Sequence record: ON286972
DNA: 64,000 bases
Reading direction: 5' to 3' (one strand)
From: Escherichia phage A4
Both the position numbers and the translations under genes were made by a program. The notes beneath the pieces were generated by a model. It ran no database searches, was not told where the DNA came from, and saw only the letters and a list, made by a program, of their open reading frames with translations. This document shows positions 2,381-58,335 of this stretch, one piece after another (within the stretch, counting starts at the first letter, position 1; every line of letters starts with the position of its first letter).

Positions 2381-5300
2381 TTAAGCAGTACGTTGAGCAA
2401 TAAACATATCTACTACTGGACTGTATCCATCATAAATCAACTGAACGATACTCACTCCACCTGGATTTGTGTTAATTTCACCACCAACGTTTGCATAAGT
2501 TCCGTCCCAATCAAAACTATGTCCACCAGTTGTATCTTGTGCGACATAGATATAATAAGAACCAGCTTTACCACTACCAATTAAACCAGTTATTGGTGTC
2601 ATCATTACGTTTTGATCTAGTGTTATATAATACACATTTGATAGACCATCTGGTGTCCAATTACCACCAACAGCAGCAGTACTTGCAGTAACTTTAGGTG
2701 ATGGAGTAACAGCATACTTTTTAGTAGTTACACTTTCAGTTACTAAATCAGCAATATCTGTATGTAGTGTACCTTCAATAGTTACATCTTTAGCAAATGT
2801 TGCATTTTCAGCAAATGAAGATGTACCAGTAACTGTGATTGCATCAGCAGACGCAGAACCTAGTGTTACAGCACCTTTAAGGTTAGTAGCACCAGTAATT
2901 GCTGCACCACCCGCAACTACATTGAAGCCACCCGCAGTGATTTCGATACCACCAGTACTAACAGTTAGTTTCTTACCGATAGTAACAACATCAGATAGTG
3001 TAGTTGCACCAGTAACTGCTAGAGTTGTGTTAATCTTAGCACTTGCCATAGTTGCTAGGCCAGAAGTTGTAATAGTTGCAGTAGTTACTGCACCAGACGC
3101 ACTAACGTTTGCACCAGACACATCACCAGTTGTGGTGATTGCACCATCACCAGCGTTGATAGTAGCACCATTAGTTGCAATACCACCTTTCAAAGTACTC
3201 AAACCTTCAGCAGTGATTGTTGAACCAACTGTTAGGGTTGTACCAGCAGCGATAAAGGTTGTAGAAGTTAGAGATTTAACTTCAACTGCACTTGCAGATT
3301 GGTCCAGTGTACCAATAATCTTACCACTAACAGTAAAGTCGCCAGTAGTTACTGCGTTACCATTAACAGTTAGGCTGTTAGCTGTTGAACCTTGTGCACC
3401 GAATGTTGCAGCACGTGCGTGCATATCTTCATCAGTAGTAATATCCTCAACTGCGTGAATTGTGGTATTAGAAGTTAATGAGTTCAGGGAAATATCCTGA
3501 CCAGCCAAATCTACTGAACCGTTAATATTACCAGCAACAAATAGGTTACTACCAATATAAGTATCACCAACAAATTGGATAGTTTCCGGTCTTGAACTAA
3601 CTTTAGGACCGATGATAATACCTTTCGCAGAAATATCAGCTTTAGGCATAGTCACAGTAGAAGCATCAGAGATGTTCACGGATGCACCATTAACAACCAA
3701 AGCACCACCAACAGTCAAACCAGTAGTTACCGCTGCACTACCAAATGTACCTTTACCAGTTGTGGTAATTGTAGTACCAGTAATGTCACCAGCAGCAGTG
3801 ATTGCGGTATTTGCACTAACAGCCAAACCACCAGTTAGAGTGCTTAGACCAGTAACTTCTAGTGTTTCTCTGGATTTCAAGCTTTTCGCATCAACTGGAG
3901 TAGTAGATAGATCCAATGTTCCAGGGTTTAGTGTTCCATTAATGGTAACATCACCAGAAACTGTTAGTGAACTGAGAGCAGCTTCACCAGCGGTTAGTTT
4001 TCCAGTTAGATTTGTAGTACCAGTAACAGCCAAAGCACCACCAGCACTTAGAGCACCAGTAACTTCCGCACTACTTAATGTAGCTTTACCACTTGTTGAA
4101 AGAGTAGTAGTGTTAGTACCACCATTTAGAGTTGAAACACCAGTAACAGTTAGTGTAGTACCAGCAGTTACAGAACCGAGTGCAGTTAAGTTAGCACTTG
4201 CATCAACACCTTCAACGTTTAGAACAGCAGAACCTAAGTTTAGGCTACCTTCAGGTGTAAATGCACCTTTAACAGTTAGGTCACCAGTAACAACTGCATC
4301 ACCTGAAACATCAACACTTGCTAGTGTTGCTTTACCAGAAGTTTGTAGAGTTGCGGATTGAACTTCACCAGTAGTTTTGATTAATGCAGAACCTGCATCA
4401 ACCCCACCAGATAGAGTACTTAGTCCAGTAACACCTAATGTTTCACCAATTGTCAAATAACCACCAACAGTTGCGTCATTATCAACTGCTACACCAACAC
4501 CAGTAGCACTTACTTGGATTGATTTAGAAGTAATTTTACCACCAACATCAACAGTACCATCAAAAGTTGCAGCACCTACAGTATGTAGGGTTGAACTTAG
4601 TGTAGTTGCACCAGAAATTGTTGGAGCACCAGTAATTGTACCAGTAGTTAGAATTAGGTCAGTACCAACAGTAGTACTTGTAGTACTTGCTAATGAGTTA
4701 GTTTCCAAATCAGCATTTGTGATAGTCAAGTTACCATCGATAGTAACGTCATTATCAACTTGTAGTGATTTAACAGTCAAATCAGTTGTACTAAAATCAA
4801 CGGAAGTTGCAGTGAAAGCACCTTCAACGTGCAAATCACCAGTAACATCTGTTGGTTTAGCTAGTGTTATTTTATCTCCAGCACTTGTGTATGAACCAGC
4901 ACTTACTGAACCATCAACCACTGCCGCAGCAGCAACTTTCAAGTTTCCAGAAGCAACAGTCAAGCCACCTTTAGCAGTAATACCACCGACGTTTACAGTT
5001 ACTGCGTTACCAAATGTTGAAGTACCAGTAACTTCAAGTGCACCAGAAACGGTCGCTTTACCACCGACTGTTGCATCACCAGTAACATTCAATTTACCAG
5101 CGGTTGCTTCAGTACTTGTTAGTTTTGGTAGAATACTTGGTTCAGTATTTTCAGTAACAGTAATAACACCAGAAGAAGTTAGTGATTTAACAGTTAGATC
5201 TGCCGCAGCAGCATTAATTGCACCATCAACAGTTAAGCTTCCACCAATGGTTGCACCTTCAGTTGTTGTTAATGATTTAGAACTGATATCAACTGGGCTT

Positions 5301-7918
5301 AAATCTAATCCACCTTCAGGTGTAAATGTACCTTTAACAGTTAAGTCACCATGTGCAACTGTATCATTTTCTAAATTAATACCATCGGTATTAACAATAG
5401 AAGGAGTAGTTACAGAAACAGCAGAAACAGCAGCCAATGTACTTTCACCAGTAACATTTAATGTAGAAATGTTTGCTGTAGTTACTGTTGCTGTACCAGT
5501 TGTACTGTTAGTTGTAGTAATATCAGTACTTTGTAATTTTGGTAGAATGTTAGTTCCAGTAGCATCATTACTAATCACAGGACCAGCACTAGTTAAAGAT
5601 TTAACACTTACATCTGCTGCACTTAAATCTACAGTACCATCAACAGTTAGGTTTCCACCTATATGTGCACTTTCAGATACATCAAGTGTTTTAACAGTTA
5701 CATCAGCCGCACTTAGGTCAATAACACCAGCCGTTAAAGTTCCAGTAACATTCAAATCACCACCAACTGATGCATTATGATCTACACTTAGACCAGTTCC
5801 GGTTCCGGTAATTTGTGCGGAAGCTGCGGTCACTTTAGTAGTTGCTGTGATATTTGGGGCAGAGATAGTACCGTCAGATTCAATTGAACCAGTTTCTAAT
5901 GCATCAGAACCAACACCAGTAACTTTACCAGTAACTTCAACTTTCAAGCCACTAAAGAGTGCGTTTCCACCAACACTTAGATTAGTTCCCACTGCAACTT
6001 CTTCAGTTGTGGTTACAGAATTAGGTAGAATGTCTAGACCATCAACGTTTGCTTTAATTGCAGCACCAGATAGTGTACCAGTAACGTTCAAATCTTTAAC
6101 AGTGGTTGTTTGACCAACAACTTCAAATAAACCATCAACTACCGTGTTACCAACCAATGTGGTAGTACCGTCAACTGTTAGGTTTCCAGATGCAGTTACG
6201 TCAACACCTTTAACATTACCAGATGCAGTTACATCTTTAGGAGTAATGTCTTGACCAGCTAGTGTAATACCAGTTGTAGTTCCAGTAACAGTCAAATCAG
6301 TTATAGTTGTGCCTTTTAGAACGGAATCCCCATCAACTGTTAGTGTACCAGAAGCATCTAGATTAACACCACTAATATTACCAGAAGCAGTTACATCTTT
6401 AGGTGTAATATCTTGACCAGAAATGTCAGGAACAAAACCAGTAACTGTACCAGTGAAATTAACGTCTTTGAATTGAGCCTTACCATCCACATCTAGAGTT
6501 AATGTATTTGGATCTTGTACCGCATTACCAGTTATTTTCAAATAATCAAATAGGTTCAAACCTTTTGCTGTAATACCGTAGGTAGATGCAGATACATCAC
6601 CAAATGTAGCAGTTTTCAGTACTGTTAGATTTGCTGGGGTCATTAATTCAGACTGTACTTCGTTTTGTAGAATTACAGTTGGGCGTAAACCAGGAGCAGT
6701 ATATGTAAAGTTAACTTTAGCATTCGTGTCTGCTACGTTTCCACCTAAAGTGACAGATTTTAAATTAGCATTCGCAGTTGAACCAACAATATTAGATTCT
6801 AGGTTTAATGCACCTTTTAGTGTAGTTAGTTTTTCAACAACTAAATTATCCGCAGTAATATCACTTAGTACAAAGTTACCTGATAGTGTTCCAGTAATAT
6901 CCAAATCACCAACAGTAGTTTTACCAGTAATATTAGTAGTTCCATCAACTTGTAGGTCAGTTAATTGTGTTTTACCTTTAGTTACACGTAGAATTGGTGT
7001 GGTTGGATCTTGTATTGAGTTACCAGAAAGTGTTAGGTAATCAAATAGGTTCAAACCTTTTGCGGTAATACCATTGGTTGCTGCTGATACATCACCAAAT
7101 GTAGCAGTTTTAAGTACTGTTAGATTTGCTGGAGTCATTAGCTCGGACTGTACTTCGTTTTGTAGAATTACAGTTGGGCGTAATCCTGGAGCAGTGTATG
7201 CAAAGCCTAGGCGTGCAGTCGAGTCCGCTGCATTAGAACCTAAAGATACAGCTTTTATGTTTGCTACAGTATTAGTACCAATGATGTTTGATTCTAGGGT
7301 TACAGCACCTTTTAATGTAGATAGTTTTTCAACAACTAAATTATCGGTATTAACATCCCCTAATGTGAAATCACCATCTAATTTACCAGTTACAGTTAGA
7401 TTCTCAACGGTTGCACCAGTTGCAGTAATATCAGTTGCTGATACAGTTGCAATGGTTGCTTCATTAGCAGTTAATTTATCAAAGCTTGCAGTGGTTGCTG
7501 CCGCAGCAGTGAGGTTACCATTTAATGTTGTTGTACCATTAACTTCTAATGCAGAAGTGGTGGTATCTTGAAAAATTGCTTTTCCTGATGTTTGTGTAAT
7601 ATCTTTGGCAAAAGTAGAAGTGCCATTAAAAGTAGCATTGGAATTAATAGTTGCTGTATCGGAACCAGCAGTAGTATTACCAATAACTGTATTGCCAAGT
7701 ACATCCATTCCACCCTTAAGTGACGCTTTGCCTGTAACATCGAGTGTTGTGTTGATTGTTGCTTGATCTACTGTAATTGCAGTGAAGGTAGCATCAGCGA
7801 AACTAACGGTCCCCTTAATGGTTACGTTTTTATCGAAGACCGCATTACCTTTAACTGATAATTCTTTACCAACATTAGTATTACCAGTTACTGCTAGATC
7901 TGTTTTTATCGAGTACAT
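2381..7918 (-). CDS. long tail fibre protein, highly repetitive
   Basis: 1845-aa ORF rich in Thr/Gly/Val/Ala with recurring LTVDG and DLTVKSL beta-strand-like repeats and two tandem ~165-aa repeats; GGAGGG Shine-Dalgarno before the ATG. Confidence 0.6.
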   Translation of the reverse strand: MYSIKTDLAVTGNTNVGKELSVKGNAVFDKNVTIKGTVSFADATFTAITVDQATINTTLDVTGKASLKGGMDVLGNTVIGNTTAGSDTATINSNATFNGTSTFAKDITQTSGKAIFQDTTTSALEVNGTTTLNGNLTAAAATTASFDKLTANEATIATVSATDITATGATVENLTVTGKLDGDFTLGDVNTDNLVVEKLSTLKGAVTLESNIIGTNTVANIKAVSLGSNAADSTARLGFAYTAPGLRPTVILQNEVQSELMTPANLTVLKTATFGDVSAATNGITAKGLNLFDYLTLSGNSIQDPTTPILRVTKGKTQLTDLQVDGTTNITGKTTVGDLDITGTLSGNFVLSDITADNLVVEKLTTLKGALNLESNIVGSTANANLKSVTLGGNVADTNAKVNFTYTAPGLRPTVILQNEVQSELMTPANLTVLKTATFGDVSASTYGITAKGLNLFDYLKITGNAVQDPNTLTLDVDGKAQFKDVNFTGTVTGFVPDISGQDITPKDVTASGNISGVNLDASGTLTVDGDSVLKGTTITDLTVTGTTTGITLAGQDITPKDVTASGNVKGVDVTASGNLTVDGTTTLVGNTVVDGLFEVVGQTTTVKDLNVTGTLSGAAIKANVDGLDILPNSVTTTEEVAVGTNLSVGGNALFSGLKVEVTGKVTGVGSDALETGSIESDGTISAPNITATTKVTAASAQITGTGTGLSVDHNASVGGDLNVTGTLTAGVIDLSAADVTVKTLDVSESAHIGGNLTVDGTVDLSAADVSVKSLTSAGPVISNDATGTNILPKLQSTDITTTNSTTGTATVTTANISTLNVTGESTLAAVSAVSVTTPSIVNTDGINLENDTVAHGDLTVKGTFTPEGGLDLSPVDISSKSLTTTEGATIGGSLTVDGAINAAAADLTVKSLTSSGVITVTENTEPSILPKLTSTEATAGKLNVTGDATVGGKATVSGALEVTGTSTFGNAVTVNVGGITAKGGLTVASGNLKVAAAAVVDGSVSAGSYTSAGDKITLAKPTDVTGDLHVEGAFTATSVDFSTTDLTVKSLQVDNDVTIDGNLTITNADLETNSLASTTSTTVGTDLILTTGTITGAPTISGATTLSSTLHTVGAATFDGTVDVGGKITSKSIQVSATGVGVAVDNDATVGGYLTIGETLGVTGLSTLSGGVDAGSALIKTTGEVQSATLQTSGKATLASVDVSGDAVVTGDLTVKGAFTPEGSLNLGSAVLNVEGVDASANLTALGSVTAGTTLTVTGVSTLNGGTNTTTLSTSGKATLSSAEVTGALSAGGALAVTGTTNLTGKLTAGEAALSSLTVSGDVTINGTLNPGTLDLSTTPVDAKSLKSRETLEVTGLSTLTGGLAVSANTAITAAGDITGTTITTTGKGTFGSAAVTTGLTVGGALVVNGASVNISDASTVTMPKADISAKGIIIGPKVSSRPETIQFVGDTYIGSNLFVAGNINGSVDLAGQDISLNSLTSNTTIHAVEDITTDEDMHARAATFGAQGSTANSLTVNGNAVTTGDFTVSGKIIGTLDQSASAVEVKSLTSTTFIAAGTTLTVGSTITAEGLSTLKGGIATNGATINAGDGAITTTGDVSGANVSASGAVTTATITTSGLATMASAKINTTLAVTGATTLSDVVTIGKKLTVSTGGIEITAGGFNVVAGGAAITGATNLKGAVTLGSASADAITVTGTSSFAENATFAKDVTIEGTLHTDIADLVTESVTTKKYAVTPSPKVTASTAAVGGNWTPDGLSNVYYITLDQNVMMTPITGLIGSGKAGSYYIYVAQDTTGGHSFDWDGTYANVGGEINTNPGGVSIVQLIYDGYSPVVDMFIAQRTA
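6404..7396. repeat. tandem intragenic duplication (2 x ~495 bp) in the long fibre gene
   Basis: DNA near 6541-6700 and 7041-7200 is near-identical; encodes two ~165-aa copies each containing TAPGLRPTVILQNEVQSELMTPANLTVLKTATFGDVSA. Confidence 0.7.
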
Positions 7919-12291: not shown

Positions 12292-12307
12292 ATATAGGAA
12301 TATTTAT
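12292..12307 (-). promoter_or_regulatory. late-promoter-like motif
   Basis: Minus-strand ATAAATATTCCTATAT upstream of the collagen-like fibre gene; identical 16-mer at 48038-48053. Confidence 0.45.
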
Positions 12308-12334
12308 CTGTTCAATGCAGCAACGAAGACCAAT

Positions 12335-33941: not shown

Positions 33942-33957
33942 ATATAGAAATATTTAT
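33942..33957 (-). promoter_or_regulatory. late-promoter-like motif
   Basis: Minus-strand ATAAATATTTCTATAT upstream of the J-like gene. Confidence 0.45.
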
Positions 33958-33985
33958 CCAAAAGAAAAGCACTCCGAAGAGTGCT
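33957..33985 (-). terminator. rho-independent terminator after gp25 gene
   Basis: Minus-strand AGCACUC-UUCG-GAGUGCU followed by UUUUCUUUU. Confidence 0.55.
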
Positions 33986-40867: not shown

Positions 40868-40919
40868 ATTAGCGATGGCACACGGATTGTGCCTATTGGT
40901 CATTACATGGAGAGTTACA

Positions 40920-41759
40920 ATGATAAACAAGCCGAAGCGTAAGAAGTATCTGAATAACGCAGACTTATTACGTGAAATACATAAAAGTAAGATATCATAC
41001 TGCTGGCTTTTGGATAAAAGTTATGGTATGTATGATTATATTGTGTTTCATGAGTCTGAAATCACAGAAGAATTACTTGAAAAGGCAAAAGCAGCACGAA
41101 TCAAACGTTTGAATAATGAAATGCTTGATAGTGTTCGCGAAAAAGAGAATATGAGTGCTAAGAAAGCAAAGGAATATGCTGATGAGCACGGTCTATTCGT
41201 AAATGATGTACCACTGGATGAAGTGGTGATTAGAGTTATCACTGATGAGCACATTCCACCAGATACACGAGTGAATTTTGAACCATTTAAACATTATATC
41301 GTTGATAATGAAGGTATTCTGTATGAAGTTGTTCGTTCACATTGGAAAGGCGACTTGGAAGATGGCGATTTCTGCTTAACACATGGTAAAATCACAAATG
41401 AACTCGGTAAAATGTTCATTAAACTAGCCGAAGAGATCTCTCACAAATCTAACTACAGAAATTATACGTATTTGGATGAAATGATGGGTGATGCTAGAAT
41501 ACAATTAGTTAAAAATGCACTTCTCTTTAAAGAGAGTATCTTGTATAAGAAAGATAAACCCGCTGTCCAACTAAATCCTTTCTCATACTATACGTCATTC
41601 GTTAACAATAGCTTCCGTTCTATTTTGAACAGTGAGAAGAATGTACGTAACATTCGCGACGACCTTCTTGAGATGCATGGTTTTACACCATCACATACAA
41701 GACAGATTGAAATCGAAATGAATATGATTGAAAGGAAAAATGACGATGGCACTATTTGA
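40920..41759 (+). CDS. gp55: late-transcription sigma factor gp55-like
   Basis: KPKRKKYLNNADLLREI aligns with T4 gp55 KPKYNYVNNKELLQAI, and NPFSYYTSFVNNSFRSILNSEK with [23 protein letters not shown]. Start set at ATG 40920 (GGAGAG Shine-Dalgarno) instead of 40875. ~280 aa versus ~185 in T4. Confidence 0.75.
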   Translation: MINKPKRKKYLNNADLLREIHKSKISYCWLLDKSYGMYDYIVFHESEITEELLEKAKAARIKRLNNEMLDSVREKENMSAKKAKEYADEHGLFVNDVPLDEVVIRVITDEHIPPDTRVNFEPFKHYIVDNEGILYEVVRSHWKGDLEDGDFCLTHGKITNELGKMFIKLAEEISHKSNYRNYTYLDEMMGDARIQLVKNALLFKESILYKKDKPAVQLNPFSYYTSFVNNSFRSILNSEKNVRNIRDDLLEMHGFTPSHTRQIEIEMNMIERKNDDGTI

Positions 41760-42786: not shown

Positions 42787-44934
42787 ATGTTAAACATTAC
42801 ACGTATAACAATGAGGAATTTCTTTTCCTTTGGTAATGCACCACAAGTTATTGATTTAAATGGTGCTGACATATCTTTAGTACTCGGTCAAAACAATGAT
42901 GCTGTCATTGAAGGTGGTGATAGTTCTGGTCGTCGTAACGGTGTAGGTAAAAGTGCAATTATTCAAGGTCTTGTTTTTGGACTATTTGGAAAAAGTATTG
43001 GTAACGATATTAAAATTCCAAACTTAGTTAATAAAACAAATGCTAAAAATTGTGAAGTTACCGTTGAGTTCGAGAAAGACGGTATACAATACCTTGTTGA
43101 GCGTGGGCGTAGTCCCACATATTTCAATTTCATCACTCTAGGTCAGGACAATAAAGTTCTCGATGAATCAAGAGGTGAAAAGAAAGATACACAAGAAGAT
43201 CTAAATGAAATTCTCGGAATCTCTCAATTACTTTTTGAGCACATTGTAGTACTGAATGCTAACGTTGAACCTTTCCTTGCTCTTTCTTCACAGAAACAAC
43301 GTGATATGATTGAAGAGCTATTAGGTATTACCCAATTAACAGAGAAAGCTGAACTGTTAAAGGATATGAACAAAGAGTCAAAACGTTTAGCTGACCAAGA
43401 GAAGTTTAAAATTGAAACAGTTGCAGCAAGTAATGAACGCATTCAACGCAGCATTGAAACCTTACAGGAACAGGCTAATAAGTTTGAAATTGATAAGGCT
43501 AATAGAGTGCAAAAACTAAAAAGTGAATTGGAAGTATACAGTACTTTTGTATTTTCTGATTTATATGCTGCTGCTGAAGAGAAAGAAGAAGCACTTCTAC
43601 ACATCTCTAAACGTTTACAACTCGAACGTAGAGTTCAAGAACTTGCAGTGAAATATGATCAGTACGATAGAGAACTAGCCACTAATAAAAATATTATTCA
43701 GCATAGTATCGATAAATTAAAAACTATTGATATTGAATCTGAATTAAAAAACCATGAAGAAATGGAACTGTGGAAACAACTAGAATCTATCTTAAAAGAT
43801 AATCAGTTGCAAAAGAATTTCAAAACACAGAAACTAAATTCACTAAATCTTTCGTTGAATGCTCATATTAAATCTCTTACAGCAGAAGAAGAGAAATTAA
43901 AATCAGTTGAGGATAGTAAATGTCCACTTTGTTTATCAGAGTTGGAGCATAATGAGCATGGTAATGGTATAAAAGATAAGATTAATGATACTATTCGTCT
44001 AATCAGAGAAAATATAAGTAAGGTTGAGTTGGAAATTGCAACACTATCAGATGAAATCAATGCAATTGAGATATTTGATATGCCCCCTAAACCTGTAACT
44101 TTCTATAATACCCTTACCGAAGCCCAAATGCATGACCATAAGCTACAAGAACTTATTAAAAAGAGTGAGGAAGAACAAATTAACATCTACCGTGATGAAC
44201 TAATGTCTTCTTATGAGGCTCTTGATGCATTAGAAGTAAAGGAAGTTCCAGATGCGTTGAATAAATCAGAAGTTAAAGAGTTAGAAATGACTTTTAACTC
44301 ACTTACTCAACAACTTGAACACGAATTGAACACAACTAATACGTTTATTAGTCAGATTAATACTTTAACAACCGATTCGTTGGTTCCTATTGATTATACT
44401 GACTTCAATAACCTTGAAAAATTGGCTAATCACCAAGATTTCTTAGTTAAACTATTGCTCAATAAGGATAGTTATGTTCGTAAACGTATCATTGAACAAA
44501 ATATCTCATATTTGAACTCCAGATTGCAGTATTATATTGATATGTGTGGTTCAGAACACAATGTGGTCTTCTTGAATGACCTTAGTGTTGAGATTGAGAA
44601 GAGTGGGCAGTACTTTGACTATAAACAATTGAGTCGTGGAGAACGAACACGTGTTAATATTGCATTATCATGTGCTTTCCGCGATACTTATGAATCATTA
44701 TATCAAAGTATTAATATTCTTATCATAGATGAGATGATAGATCAGGGTCTTGATTCAAGTGGTGTTCTAAGAGTATGGTCAATCTTCCAGGATATGGCTG
44801 CTGTACGTGGTAAAAACGTATATGCAATATCTCACAGAGAAGAATTACTATCTAAAACAGAAAAAATCCTTAAAGTGGTTAAAGAAGACGGTTTCAGTAC
44901 TGTTGAATATGCTACTCTTGATGATATTTTCTAA
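42787..44934 (+). CDS. gp46: recombination endonuclease ATPase gp46 (Rad50/SbcC-like)
   Basis: Walker A GRRNGVGKSAI, zinc hook CPLC, long coiled coils, signature SRGERTRVNIAL, Walker B ILIIDEMIDQGLD; aligns with T4 gp46. Confidence 0.9.
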   Translation: MLNITRITMRNFFSFGNAPQVIDLNGADISLVLGQNNDAVIEGGDSSGRRNGVGKSAIIQGLVFGLFGKSIGNDIKIPNLVNKTNAKNCEVTVEFEKDGIQYLVERGRSPTYFNFITLGQDNKVLDESRGEKKDTQEDLNEILGISQLLFEHIVVLNANVEPFLALSSQKQRDMIEELLGITQLTEKAELLKDMNKESKRLADQEKFKIETVAASNERIQRSIETLQEQANKFEIDKANRVQKLKSELEVYSTFVFSDLYAAAEEKEEALLHISKRLQLERRVQELAVKYDQYDRELATNKNIIQHSIDKLKTIDIESELKNHEEMELWKQLESILKDNQLQKNFKTQKLNSLNLSLNAHIKSLTAEEEKLKSVEDSKCPLCLSELEHNEHGNGIKDKINDTIRLIRENISKVELEIATLSDEINAIEIFDMPPKPVTFYNTLTEAQMHDHKLQELIKKSEEEQINIYRDELMSSYEALDALEVKEVPDALNKSEVKELEMTFNSLTQQLEHELNTTNTFISQINTLTTDSLVPIDYTDFNNLEKLANHQDFLVKLLLNKDSYVRKRIIEQNISYLNSRLQYYIDMCGSEHNVVFLNDLSVEIEKSGQYFDYKQLSRGERTRVNIALSCAFRDTYESLYQSINILIIDEMIDQGLDSSGVLRVWSIFQDMAAVRGKNVYAISHREELLSKTEKILKVVKEDGFSTVEYATLDDIF

Positions 44935-44947
44935 TATAATGAATAAA

Positions 44948-44970
44948 GGGAGCCTTAGCTCCCTTTTTTT
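44948..44970 (+). terminator. rho-independent terminator after gene 46
   Basis: GGGAGC-ctta-GCTCCC then TTTTTTT; the convergent endo VII-like stop codon lies inside the hairpin. Confidence 0.65.
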
Positions 44971-45446
44971 ATATCTAACATGTTTAATTTGCCGTCCTTA
45001 ATAAGCTTCCTAGCCTGTTTTACACGAGCAGTAGTGTTGCTACCAGGGACAACTCCTAACCCTTCCAGAATCGCGTTTTGCTGCGTTGCTGGGAGCCTTT
45101 TAAACTTATTAACATCCACAGTTAATGCCGTGTGATGAATCACTTGCTCTTCTGGTGGAATATTATTGTTCTTTTCAAGATAATCTGCCAGATTTCTTAG
45201 TACTTCATGAAGAGGTTTATCAGTTAAATGACGCAAGTATCGATTGAAAGAGTTCTGCACCTTACCTTCCCATGCGTTAACCTCATTTTGTAGAACTTCT
45301 CTACAATGCTGGTTTTCGAAGTGATAGTGGTCGAGTACTGGTTTCTTAATCGGTTCCTTGATTATAGGATCAATACCTTTTTGCTTTTTTAATAATTCAT
45401 TTCTGTACGTAGCAGCTTCCTTACTATCTTTAAGTCTTCGTTTCAT
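44955..45446 (-). CDS. endonuclease VII-like nuclease (T4 gp49-like) lacking zinc-binding cysteines
   Basis: LDHYHFENQ...LQNEVNAWEGK...SFNRYL...YLEKN aligns with T4 endo VII LDHDHELNG...LCNLCNAAEGQ...KFNRSG...YLKSD; catalytic D/H/H/N/E kept, the four Cys ligands are absent. Confidence 0.55.
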   Translation of the reverse strand: MKRRLKDSKEAATYRNELLKKQKGIDPIIKEPIKKPVLDHYHFENQHCREVLQNEVNAWEGKVQNSFNRYLRHLTDKPLHEVLRNLADYLEKNNNIPPEEQVIHHTALTVDVNKFKRLPATQQNAILEGLGVVPGSNTTARVKQARKLIKDGKLNMLDIKKGS

Positions 45447-45469
45447 AATGTGCCTTAGATCTAAGTTAG

Positions 45470-45486
45470 TTTATGAAATATTTATG
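45470..45486 (-). promoter_or_regulatory. late-promoter-like motif before the endo VII-like gene
   Basis: Minus-strand CATAAATATTTCATAAA ~25 nt upstream of ATG 45446. Confidence 0.4.
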
Positions 45487-45543
45487 AAATACATTCCTAA
45501 GAAATTTTTAAGTACTTTTTTTATAAAAAAGATTAGATATTTT

Positions 45544-45571
45544 GAGACACTTTTAAATTGCGTGCTATAAT
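45544..45571 (+). promoter_or_regulatory. sigma70-like promoter firing into the ORF-free region
   Basis: GAGACA-N16-TGcTATAAT; same spacing as the clpA and gene 55 promoters. Confidence 0.45.
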
Positions 45572-45577
45572 GTTTCA

Positions 45578-46064
45578 TGTAGTACTGACAATCCTGTTGA
45601 ATGCAGAAATGCATATAAATTAGAACCTAATCCACTCGAAAATGTAGAGGGTAGATGAGCAGTTCAACAGTGCGATGAGCAAAAGAAACCCGTTAGATGT
45701 GGGCATATTATGAACCCCTCACGGCGACACGGCTCAATAAAGAACTCCGATAAGCATACAGAGAGTTCCTCGATAGTTCCTCGATAGATGTATAAGGATC
45801 GCACCTTACCAGATTTGCTAAGGGAGTTTGATGATTCATTTCATTAAACAGCCTGAAGTTTGATTGTATAGACTTTCAGGTGAGTGTCAGGATGTTTAAG
45901 ACTGACGACCGTTGCACATGACTGCGATAGAGAGAAACAGAGCAACCCGCTTTCGTTCTTAATATTTTTACAATATAATTACGTTTAAATTTTAAGAAAT
46001 TCGCAATACAATAATACCGATGCCATCAGCGTCAAGAAACAGAGACTTAATTGTCTCTTTTTTA
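45578..46064 (+). ncRNA. candidate non-coding transcript (promoter to terminator), family unknown
   Basis: Bounded by the promoter at 45544-45571 and the hairpin/T-run at 46041-46064; contains an 8-bp stem-loop (CCTGAAGT...ACTTTCAGG), a tandem 11-bp repeat and only very short ORFs. Confidence 0.3.
46041..46064 (+). terminator. candidate terminator inside the ORF-free region
   Basis: AGAGAC-ttaatt-GTCTCT then TTTTTT. Confidence 0.5.
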
Positions 46065-46149
46065 TTATCTTCATTCCCCTGCGGGGGGATGAAATATCCT
46101 CAACAAATCCCGTCAAGTATTAAATCATTTAAAGTTCTTTATAATTATA

Positions 46150-46307: not shown

Positions 46308-46341
46308 CAAAAACAAAAAAAAACCAGCAACAATGTGCTGG
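46308..46341 (-). terminator. rho-independent terminator
   Basis: Minus-strand CCAGCA...UGCUGG hairpin followed by a run of nine U. Confidence 0.6.
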
Positions 46342-46354
46342 CTTCTTATGAGTA

Positions 46355-46516
46355 TTAGTGCTTCTCGTTCATCTTCTTTACTTTCTTATTGTATGCCTTA
46401 ATAAGCATATCTCTGTCATTTACTGGCATATTAAGTAGAGTTGCATAATCGACATTATCTACATAAACAGCAGCATCCATAAGGGCATTTTTAATATCTG
46501 ATTTATTCAACTCCAT
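46355..46516 (-). CDS. small hypothetical protein (53 aa)
   Basis: Short ORF (MELNKSDIKNALMDAAVYVDNVDYATLL...) between the zinc-ribbon gene and a terminator; weak Shine-Dalgarno; below ORF-track size cut-off. Confidence 0.2.
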   Translation of the reverse strand: MELNKSDIKNALMDAAVYVDNVDYATLLNMPVNDRDMLIKAYNKKVKKMNEKH

Positions 46517-48024: not shown

Positions 48025-48037
48025 TACATTGCATTTC

Positions 48038-48053
48038 ATAAATATTCCTATAT
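48038..48053 (+). promoter_or_regulatory. late-promoter-like motif
   Basis: ATAAATATTCCTATAT ~25 nt before ATG 48077. Confidence 0.45.
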
Positions 48054-48076: not shown

Positions 48077-50248
48077 ATGGCTGTAAACAACAGTGATTAC
48101 TTACTACAACAGATAGTGAATAAATCTAATGATACCGTAGATGGTCTTTCAGCTATACGTGAATTGTTAGCAGAAAGTTTAAAGAATGATAAAAAGAAAA
48201 ATAATGGTGGTGGTAACCCATCACCTGGCGATTCATCTGGACCAAGTGGTGGTGGACGCGGTTCTCGTGGTAATTCATCCTCTATGGGTAAAATGTTCAG
48301 AGCAATGTCCAGCGAAATGACAAACGTTGGTAAAACAATGATGAGTACTTCAGCGAATGTCAGTACTGTCATTAACTCAATGGGTATGAGTGCATCATCC
48401 GTAGCTGGCTCTCTTTCTATGATCCCTGGTCCTGTAGGAATGGCAGCATCAGCATTTAAAATGGTTGCTGATGTAGGGATGGCAGTATATAACGTAATGA
48501 ACGCCCAGCTTGAAATGTACAACAGAGTCAACAGTGCGGGTGTTTCTCTTGCTGAAGGTTATGGCTCTTTGCTAAAAGGTTCAGGTTCAGCGTTAATGTC
48601 TATGGATCTATTCAGTGAAGTAATATCAACTCATAGTGATGTTATTGCACAATTGGATGGTTCGTATGGAGATGGCGTTAAGGAATTTGGTAAATTGTTA
48701 GGTGTAGTTCAAAATGCCCAAGATAAACTTGGCCTATATGGTATGTCACAAAAAACTTTATCAGATTTAGCAGCACGTAACATCAAAATTCAAAAACAAT
48801 TTGGTGGTGCAGAACTAGTAAGGAATATAAACCAAGCACAAAGTACCCAAGAGTTAATTAAAACTATGTCTACTTTTAGTAAGACAATGGGTATGTCAAT
48901 TGATGAATTACTTAAAAAGACACAATCACTTGATAAATCATTTGATGCAAGAATACTAAAAACTACACTAAACAACTGGGTGGGACTATCAGAAGAAACC
49001 GCAACATTAACCACTAAAGCACTTACCGAAGCGGCAGGTGGTATGGGGGATATGGGTACTGATTTCCTAAGATTGATTAGCCACAGAATATCAATTGGTG
49101 GTGTTCCTGATGATTTATTATCTCCAATGATTAGCGAATTCGCTGACCTTGGTGAGAACATGGTTAAGTCTGGTGTAACCGATGCAAAAGCTATACGTGA
49201 AGCACAATATCAGTGGGTGAAGAAAAACAGAAAACGCGTTGAAGCAGATATGGAAGATATGCAACGAAGTCAAAACTTCACCGCTGCCGCATTTGCTAAG
49301 CAAATGTTAGATATGGAAGCTGCAATTAATGCTGACAAAAATCGACCAGCAGATAAAATCGCAGAATTTACTGATAGATTGAACAGATGGGTCAGTACTG
49401 AATTTGTTGCTCCATTCAATAAAATGTATGCTGATGTTCAAAATAATGTTGTTGATTATTTGACAGCAATTGCAGATCGTACCGATAGTGCATGGGGATT
49501 TATTTGGGAATTGGCTAAAGATGGATTTGGGTTAGTTCCAATATTCAAGGATGCGGTTTCTTATGTTGACCGTATTGGTAACGAATTTGTATTATGGCTT
49601 GAGGGATTGGGTTCTGACATATTTGGGGACACATATACTCAAGTTTCAAAAGCATTCGATGACTTCATGAAGAATCTCATGGATTTACCTGGAAAGTTAT
49701 GGGATAAAGTAAAAGGATGGTTTGGTTCAGATGATAAATCTGAAAAACAAGAAGAACCTAAAAAGAAAATAGAAGAGAAAGCTACATCTTTCTGGGATTC
49801 TATTGGTAATTCAGTAGACGATTTCACAAAATTTGTAGAAGAAAAAACACTTGACTTCCAAAAATGGAAATCTTCTAAATTATATACACCACCTAGACCA
49901 TTTAACGTAGATAATGCATATCGAGTCTTGGGCTATGAACCACCTAAAAACGTCCAGACTACAGTAATGCCAAATACACCACCTATGATGGAATTAACTC
50001 GTAAACATTATGATAAATCCGCATGGAAACCTGGTGAAGCACCATTCCCACCAGAACCAGATCGTGATATAAAATCTCTGGTAACGCCTCAAAACGGAAC
50101 TATAAATAATGACATGAGTTCAGAAGAGATCAAAGAAATTTTTAAACGTCTAGCAGAAATGAGTGAACAATCACTCGCAGCAACAAATCAGACAAATAAT
50201 TACTTAAGAACAATTTCTGAAAATACACAAGGTGAACGCAATAGTTAA
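48077..50248 (+). CDS. hypothetical virion protein (Gly/Ser/Met-rich N-terminus)
   Basis: 723-aa ORF immediately upstream of portal; late promoter motif upstream. Confidence 0.4.
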   Translation: MAVNNSDYLLQQIVNKSNDTVDGLSAIRELLAESLKNDKKKNNGGGNPSPGDSSGPSGGGRGSRGNSSSMGKMFRAMSSEMTNVGKTMMSTSANVSTVINSMGMSASSVAGSLSMIPGPVGMAASAFKMVADVGMAVYNVMNAQLEMYNRVNSAGVSLAEGYGSLLKGSGSALMSMDLFSEVISTHSDVIAQLDGSYGDGVKEFGKLLGVVQNAQDKLGLYGMSQKTLSDLAARNIKIQKQFGGAELVRNINQAQSTQELIKTMSTFSKTMGMSIDELLKKTQSLDKSFDARILKTTLNNWVGLSEETATLTTKALTEAAGGMGDMGTDFLRLISHRISIGGVPDDLLSPMISEFADLGENMVKSGVTDAKAIREAQYQWVKKNRKRVEADMEDMQRSQNFTAAAFAKQMLDMEAAINADKNRPADKIAEFTDRLNRWVSTEFVAPFNKMYADVQNNVVDYLTAIADRTDSAWGFIWELAKDGFGLVPIFKDAVSYVDRIGNEFVLWLEGLGSDIFGDTYTQVSKAFDDFMKNLMDLPGKLWDKVKGWFGSDDKSEKQEEPKKKIEEKATSFWDSIGNSVDDFTKFVEEKTLDFQKWKSSKLYTPPRPFNVDNAYRVLGYEPPKNVQTTVMPNTPPMMELTRKHYDKSAWKPGEAPFPPEPDRDIKSLVTPQNGTINNDMSSEEIKEIFKRLAEMSEQSLAATNQTNNYLRTISENTQGERNS

Positions 50249-53890: not shown

Positions 53891-53902
53891 CATTTTAAAA
53901 TT

Positions 53903-53918
53903 ATAAATATTTGTATAT
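53903..53918 (+). promoter_or_regulatory. late-promoter-like motif before scaffold gene
   Basis: ATAAATATTTGTATAT, then ATTTCAGTACT leader and AAAGGAG Shine-Dalgarno. Confidence 0.5.
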
Positions 53919-55101: not shown

Positions 55102-55133
55102 AATTTTTTCAGTACCATAAATAATAACATACT
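55102..55133 (+). promoter_or_regulatory. conserved leader element before major capsid gene
   Basis: AATTTTTTCAGTACCATAAATAATAACATACT containing CATAAATA. Confidence 0.5.
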
Positions 55134-58295: not shown

Positions 58296-58335
58296 ATATA
58301 AATATGATATATATTAAACAAAAAAGGATTTTTAC

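Follow-up and report, generated by a model that had tools for sequence, protein, structure and literature searches.

The textbook example of a phage junction resolvase is T4 endonuclease VII, whose structure includes a zinc site built from four cysteines. A gene of Escherichia phage A4 (ON286972) carries the catalytic signature of this enzyme without those cysteines. This raises the question of whether its product is an endonuclease VII at all and, if it is, whether the missing zinc site is a peculiarity of one locus or a trait shared more widely. The question matters for function, since the T4 mutants C23S and C61S show neither activity nor DNA binding (PMC6083498), so that activity in the absence of the zinc site is not self-evident. 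We addressed it in a 64,000-nucleotide stretch of the phage DNA, referred to below as the window. The original prediction had covered positions 44948 to 45486, a span that comprises the open reading frame (ORF) together with a hairpin at one end and an upstream motif at the other.

Genomic setting

The phage from which the window derives is a Rak2-like jumbo myovirus, and the window has about 80% nucleotide identity to Asteriusvirus phages, among them fEgEco12, Ecwhy_1, and UB. The gene, recognized by ORF calling, by its membership in PHROG 423, and by structural homology to T4 endonuclease VII, occupies 44955..45446 on the minus strand (ATG at 45446..45444, TAA at 44957..44955) and encodes 163 aa. 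A putative Shine-Dalgarno element, AAGG, can be read from the sequence 6 nt before the ATG (45453..45456, minus strand). The convergent neighbor is a 715-aa SbcC/gp46-like gene (42787..44934, plus strand), which is preceded by an SbcD/gp47-like gene and by a gene for a gp55-like late sigma factor (40875..41759), about 4 kb from the endonuclease gene. A baseplate hub gene and further virion genes lie on the other flank.

The order of baseplate hub, small ORF, conserved block, endonuclease VII, and convergent gp46 and gp47 genes recurs in Asteriusvirus, Mimasvirus, Eneladusvirus, and XaC1, and the records inspected from these groups each contained one copy of the endonuclease VII gene.

Homology to T4 endonuclease VII

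Residues 2 to 150 of the protein matched PHROG 423, “endonuclease VII,” with an E value of 1.5e-34; T4 gp49 itself matched the same family at 5.4e-61 over residues 1 to 157, its full length. A profile built from the clade (23 jumbo-phage homologues) retrieved T4 endonuclease VII (1e7d/1en7) from the PDB at an E value of 2.4e-6, and hhalign aligned T4 residues 16 to 134 with query residues 19 to 133, reaching into the C-terminal domain, with a probability of 95.3% and an E value of 2.4e-8. The T4 gp49 sequence used in our alignments was identical to that of 1e7d/1en7. The clade profile was needed for this result, as a single-sequence phmmer search of the PDB returned nothing relevant. A profile search against the endonuclease VII family was the check attached to the original prediction, and the PHROG match bears the prediction out, although the single-sequence match to Pfam PF02945 (Endonuclease_7) was subthreshold, at 18.0 bits against a gathering threshold of 23.6 (E = 0.0027; query residues 13 to 91, profile positions 13 to 81 of 82). 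Most orthologues likewise have no precomputed Pfam hit. The missing zinc site, described below, explains why Pfam overlooks such proteins.

An AF2 model, which was computed as a monomer only and from only 23 close homologues, had a mean pLDDT of 86.2, and the order of its secondary-structure elements was that of T4 endonuclease VII. The sole significant PDB match of this model in Foldseek was 1e7l_A (E = 1.2e-4, probability 1.00, 160 columns). Its TM-score against T4 endonuclease VII was low, at 0.36, presumably because the comparison set a monomer model against a single chain of a domain-swapped dimer. Together, hhalign, Foldseek, and AF2 describe a T4-type architecture, with an N-terminal beta-beta-alpha-Me domain and a helical C-terminal domain collinear with gp49. 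As judged from these comparisons, the ORF product is an endonuclease VII homologue, far beyond chance.

Likenesses to T4 gp49 (1en7, 1e7d, 1e7l, and 2qnc) thus extend to PHROG 423, to length (163 aa in the query, 157 aa in T4), to the order of secondary-structure elements, and to the helical C-terminal domain, and a late, packaging-linked debranching of DNA is expected of both. The two proteins also share D-H-x-H, the active-site R and N, E-G, FNR, and a downstream His (T4 H105, query H104). They differ in that identity is only 22 to 28%, that the loop between the two beta-strands is about 4 residues shorter in the query, that four residues (IPPE) are inserted in the query ahead of the conserved His, that its gene is convergent to gene 46 with a terminator in common, and that all four of the zinc ligands are replaced.

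The active site is retained

The catalytic signature on which the original prediction had rested, LDHYHFENQ...VLQNEVNAWEG...FNRY, is present in the 163-aa ORF. In all alignments, query residues D39, H40, H42, R49, N57, and E60 corresponded to T4 D40, H41, H43, R54, N62, and E65, which have been summarized as metal ligands, catalytic His, and active-site Arg (PMC6083498). The codons of D39-H40-Y41-H42 (45321..45332, minus strand) are the counterpart of T4 D40-H41-D42-H43, which supplies a metal ligand and the catalytic His of the beta-beta-alpha-Me finger (PMC6083498). By the alignments and column counts, those of N57-A-W-E60 (45267..45278, minus strand) match T4 N62, a metal ligand, and E65. 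The R49 codon (45300..45302, minus strand) matches T4 R54, the active-site Arg of the DHHRN motif (column counts; PMC6083498).

These positions are strongly conserved among the 153 sequences that we aligned. The D, H, and H of DHxH were kept in 149, 150, and 151 sequences, respectively, the Arg in 151, and the Asn in 152. The E60 column was more variable, with E in 68 sequences and L in 59; the query has E. The protein therefore carries the complete DHHRN catalytic motif (D39, H40, H42, R49, and N57) plus E60, the same constellation of D, H, H, R, and N that is found in the DHHRN/Endonuclease_7 family of Fang et al. (2018), which includes F-CphI, Hpy99I, and T4 Endo VII. Unlike the members of that family, the query has no flanking CX2-4C and CX2C and falls below the Pfam threshold.

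The zinc ligands are absent

MAFFT, the comparison of the clade HMM with the PDB, and hhalign agreed in aligning the T4 zinc ligands C23, C26, C58, and C61 with D26, I29, Q53, and V56, so the claim that none of the four zinc cysteines is present held in three alignments. The first T4 zinc knuckle, C23-L-I-C26, is replaced by D26-P27-I28-I29 (codons at 45360..45371, minus strand) and the second, C58-N-L-C61, by Q53-N54-E55-V56 (45279..45290, minus strand). C48, the single Cys of the protein, lies at a nonligand position that is Val in T4. The CX2-4C before DHxH and the CX2C before the Asn, treated in the literature as a highly conserved part of the DHHRN motif (PMC6083498), are both lacking. 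The Cys4 structural zinc site of T4 gp49 cannot form in this protein. Many His-Me fingers are known to have no zinc knuckle (PMC5714182).

Could the cysteines have been lost through a sequencing or assembly error, or could the gene be decaying and inactive? The subthreshold Pfam score is the one point in favor of this explanation, to which we assign a practically negligible probability. Four independent codon changes would be required, the ORF is intact, no variation is seen at the catalytic residues, and conservation follows the pattern expected under purifying selection. A sequencing error that hides the Cys codons, which the original prediction had named as a possible refutation, is excluded, because 10 database contigs encode the identical protein and the databases list over 100 homologues at 56 to 90% identity, and all 22 of the 22 aligned lack the canonical ligand set.

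Zinc-less proteins form a large branch of the family

An exhaustive profile search returned 590 representative clusters (50% identity level) at an E value of ≤1e-3. We aligned the best 150 of these 590 with T4, obtaining 153 aligned sequences in which 148 representatives could be scored at the ligand columns. Among these 148, a sample in which the zinc-less proportion is biased because the 150 are the nearest neighbors of a zinc-less query, the four ligand columns contained no Cys in 75, a single Cys in 59, two in 3, three in 4, and all four in 7; neither Cys nor His was found at any of the four columns in 57. Over the 153 aligned sequences, the C23 column was divided between D (81) and C (68). 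The other columns were more mixed, with T 77, L 32, and C 12 for C26; H 41, D 37, S 33, Q 13, and C 8 for C58; and V 38, A 26, S 25, and C 21 for C61. Twenty-eight of the 150 representatives had no Cys anywhere in the knuckle and active-site stretch that we examined, and several had none in the whole protein.

Lack of the cysteines is thus the majority state among the relatives of the query, and by these counts the zinc-less branch is clearly large. Its members share the pattern G-x-D-P-I-T ... LDHxH ... R-x-V-L-x-R-x-x-N-x-x-E/L-G-K. The rarity that the original prediction had implied was not borne out: 75 of the 148 nearest representatives are without ligand Cys, and orthologues have already been annotated as EndoVII. 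The locus is not odd in having no zinc ligands, since a large branch shares this trait, and its gene is an ordinary orthologue, already annotated in published phage genomes. In the literature that we searched, we found no paper describing a zinc-less endonuclease VII clade and no biochemically characterized zinc-less member.

The closest orthologues are those of other Rak2-like phages (GAP32_241, phAPEC6 gp234, CBB_248, and 121Q), which have 62 to 90% identity, the same synteny, no canonical CxxC...CxxC, and the annotation “EndoVII packaging and recombination endonuclease”; we noted no difference of substance between them and the query. Zinc-less examples also occur outside the jumbo phages. 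The rV5-like orthologues, at about 43% identity, are annotated as EndoVII, and their representative KB57 gp124 has three Cys, all at noncanonical positions (37, 48, and 55). The phiKMV-like endonuclease VII proteins of Ralstonia phage RSB1 (gp21) and Klebsiella phage KpV71 (gp30) likewise belong to PHROG 423, and they too already bear an endonuclease VII annotation. They differ from the query in being shorter (121 to 140 aa) and in being encoded in a DNA metabolism block beside an exonuclease gene. RSB1 gp21, the one phiKMV-like protein inspected that has no site, resembles the query in missing all four ligands (S, T, Q, and E there), whereas KpV71 gp30 keeps a CxxC...HxxC set. In 350-kb jumbo phages, in rV5-like phages, and in the one phiKMV-like phage checked (RSB1), the only endonuclease VII-type gene encodes a zinc-less protein.

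One member of the family, P0175 (446 aa), is split within the catalytic LDH|xH motif by about 290 additional aa. This insertion starts with CFDEETEVLT and ends with VVGN followed by C, and it looks like an intein in the active site.

Since most of the nearest relatives are without the T4 zinc site, the fold can evidently be maintained in another way. One explanation is that the structural metal site has been relocated to the jumbo-clade residues C48, H73, H104, and H105, which would make the enzyme zinc-dependent after all. Among 23 aligned jumbo-phage homologues, H73, H104, and H105 do not vary and at least 90% have C48, and some relatives have cysteines at other, noncanonical positions (37, 48, and 55 in KB57; 37, 48, and 56 in P0101). 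Against this, the corresponding columns of the wider family do not look like ligands: position 48 was V in 70 sequences, C in 47, and I in 25; position 73 was W, H, Y, or K; and position 105 was Pro in 105 of 153. C48, H73, and H105 are conserved inside the jumbo clade only, whereas H104 is conserved even in T4, which contains zinc. The representatives with no Cys in the stretch examined, or with none at all, also speak against it, and we searched the aligned representatives for a substitute metal site conserved family-wide and found none. We consider a relocated site unlikely. The knuckle might be stabilized by other means, candidates being the Asp-Pro that is nearly invariant where T4 has C23 and the Arg that frequently follows the C58 position in the family, a residue that is Asn in this phage.

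A broader proposition is that the zinc-less branch is the dominant form of endonuclease VII in phages, resolving junctions either metal-free or by way of the relocated C48/H73/H104/H105 site. We regard this as rather unlikely. If it were true, the fold would not be defined by the “essential” Cys4 zinc of T4 gp49, which would then be a solution specific to one lineage. Proteins of this kind would be an easy biochemical target, as a zinc-independent resolvase or mismatch-cleaving enzyme.

Resolvase or homing nuclease

The likely identity of the gene product is the endonuclease VII-type structure-specific nuclease of the phage, the functional counterpart of T4 gp49, transcribed late and working without the Cys4 zinc site. 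An alternative hypothesis is that it is a free-standing, sequence-tolerant homing nuclease, or one that degrades host DNA, which uses the DHHRN motif in the manner of F-CphI and is not a resolvase. The DHHRN motif does occur in homing endonucleases and in a restriction enzyme as well (PMC6083498), and the gene adjoins a repeated, unannotated element. The similarity to T4 gp49, which runs along the whole protein and includes part of the C-terminal domain, is evidence against this hypothesis, and no additional DNA-binding domain is present in the query. In a survey of jumbo phages, T4 endonuclease VII-like resolvases were nearly complementary in their distribution with RuvC (PMC7824862). We favor a resolvase because of this complementarity, the single copy per record, and the fixed syntenic position across several genera, and we judge a homing or host-DNA-degrading role to be very unlikely.

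For dimerization, junction cleavage, late timing, and the stabilization of the fold, we infer the following for the resolvase. The protein would be a dimer, by homology with T4, and in its beta-beta-alpha-Me (His-Me finger) site, D39 and N57 would coordinate one Mg2+. H40 would act as the general base, assisted by H42, R49, and E60. The former zinc knuckle would presumably be held by side-chain packing and hydrogen bonds, for example, by the Asp-Pro at the C23 position. The enzyme may then introduce paired nicks at branch points, that is, at Holliday junctions and other branches of the replicated and recombined concatemer, and this debranching, before or during packaging, would make the DNA packageable. 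The packaging-associated role proposed in the original prediction is thus one that homology suggests.

A probable late promoter and a shared terminator

A late-type motif had been predicted upstream of the gene, and our analysis agrees. CATAAATA (45479..45486, minus strand), 33 nt upstream of the ATG, matches the T4 late consensus TATAAATA at 7 of 8 positions. The exact consensus was not enriched in the window (4 copies versus about 9 expected), and this had cast doubt on the motif; the doubt was overturned by the positions of NATAAATA, which is TATAAATA with its first base relaxed. Seventeen of the 20 copies of NATAAATA in the window lie 7 to 58 nt upstream of a same-strand gene start, mostly of virion genes; examples are at 12301-12308(-), 33951-33958(-), 48037-48044(+), 53902-53909(+), 55116-55123(+), and 58297-58304(+). 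Only about 2% of strand positions fall within 60 nt upstream of a start, and the positional signal is therefore strong. Copies of the control word TATAAAT[CGT] were scattered inside genes. NATAAATA behaves as the late-promoter core of this phage. The virion gene at 48077 has the same word as CATAAATA at the same 33-nt distance, and phAPEC6 has an exact TATAAATA at the position aligned with CATAAATA. In GAP32, CBB, Yen9-04, pEa_SNUABM_12, and XaC1, the 45-nt segment bearing the motif is absent at the aligned position. The positional motif, taken with the encoded gp55-like sigma factor, makes late transcription a reasonable expectation: the gene is probably transcribed late from CATAAATA by the host RNA polymerase with the gp55-like sigma factor of the phage.

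At the other end of the gene, transcription would probably stop at a hairpin that also terminates the convergent gene 46. This bidirectional terminator (44945..44973, both strands) has a 9-bp stem and a 4-nt loop, the hairpin itself being AAAGGGAGC-TAAG-GCTCCCTTT at 44945..44966. Its folding energy was -17 kcal/mol, the z score was -3.8 for one strand and -3.6 for the other, and no shuffled sequence folded equally well. Our scan classed it as terminator-like on both strands: gene 46, on the plus strand, has a T-run following the hairpin, and the minus strand has UUUAUUCAUU. The stop codon had been placed inside the terminator of gene 46, and more exactly the TAA (44955-44957) sits in the 4-nt loop. 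The last codons of the endonuclease gene, AAA AAA GGG AGC TAA, double as the A-tract, the 5′ arm of the stem, and a portion of the loop. Because the K-K-G-S codons are at once A-tract and 5′ stem arm, the conserved C-terminal KKG[SA] is dual-coded with the terminator. phAPEC6 keeps this arrangement. GAP32, which is more distant, has GGAGCC/GGCTCC as its stem versus GGGAGC/GCTCCC here; the arms are still complementary, and the TAA is again in the loop.

A candidate structured RNA upstream of the gene

The approximately 0.87 kb between the ATG of the endonuclease gene and the next upstream terminator contains no credible ORF. Directly upstream of the gene, at about 45590..46090 (minus strand), it holds a candidate structured RNA of approximately 470 to 500 nt that is mostly unannotated and whose conservation across genera exceeds that of the flanking proteins. 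We located this block at 269 places in 71 Rak2-like phage records, with 3 to 5 copies per genome; other loci include L004:2200-3007, L005:2225-3001, L006:2250-3007, L007:2255-3007, L009:2197-3007, L010:2194-2992, and L052:2501-3501. An alignment of 19 sequences predicted 46 pairs, and compensatory double changes were seen in 24 of these. In this alignment, 94.9% of the cells were paired, versus 41 to 49% when the partners were slid; 122 cells showed double changes, versus 10 to 21 in the slid controls; and the covariation score was 0.397, versus 0.06 to 0.09. From G-U pairs that are invariant or nearly so, the RNA can be assigned to the minus strand of the window, in the direction of the endonuclease gene. 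Rfam scans of the conserved block matched no known family, and a search for tRNAs within the window found none.

The possibility that the RNA is a leader or guide for endonuclease VII was rejected as the main reading. The second copy in GAP32, the only other copy whose neighbors were inspected, lies among unrelated hypothetical genes and not beside the endonuclease VII gene, and we therefore read the block as an independent multicopy structured RNA. More speculatively, it might work with the nuclease. In Yersinia phage fHe-Yen9-04, an adenine methyltransferase gene is inserted between the small ORF and the RNA block (L007:1444-2250), and in XaC1, two hypothetical ORFs are inserted at that place (L010:1262-2193); despite these insertions, the block still adjoins the endonuclease VII gene in both phages. 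In Alcyoneusvirus KP13-7, the block is absent from the position upstream of endonuclease VII.

Several signals accompany the block. A near-consensus sigma-70-type promoter at 45542-45571 (plus strand; TTGAGA, an 18-nt spacer, TATAAT, and an extended -10 TG) points away from the endonuclease gene and runs antisense into the RNA block. Its -35 and -10 elements are kept in GAP32, CBB, Yen9-04, and XaC1, where the minus-strand alignment reads ATTATA[GC]CAC ... TGT[CT][TC]CA. A terminator-like hairpin at 46041-46058 (both strands) lies inside the conserved block. An A6 run precedes it on the minus strand, so that on the plus strand it is followed by T6, and its paired sequences differ from genus to genus in a compensatory manner (GAGAC/GTCTC, GTACT/AGTAC, and TACC/GGTA). 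Another terminator-like hairpin, at 46318-46347 (minus strand), lies 3′ of a 53-aa ORF (46355..46516; PHROG 18291).

Elsewhere in the window, an 1,845-aa ORF (2381-7918, minus strand) contains many families of internal direct repeats of 30 to 220 nt with 60 to 97% identity, several of them spaced 495 nt apart. This repeat structure suggests that its product is a repetitive fiber- or adhesin-like structural protein.
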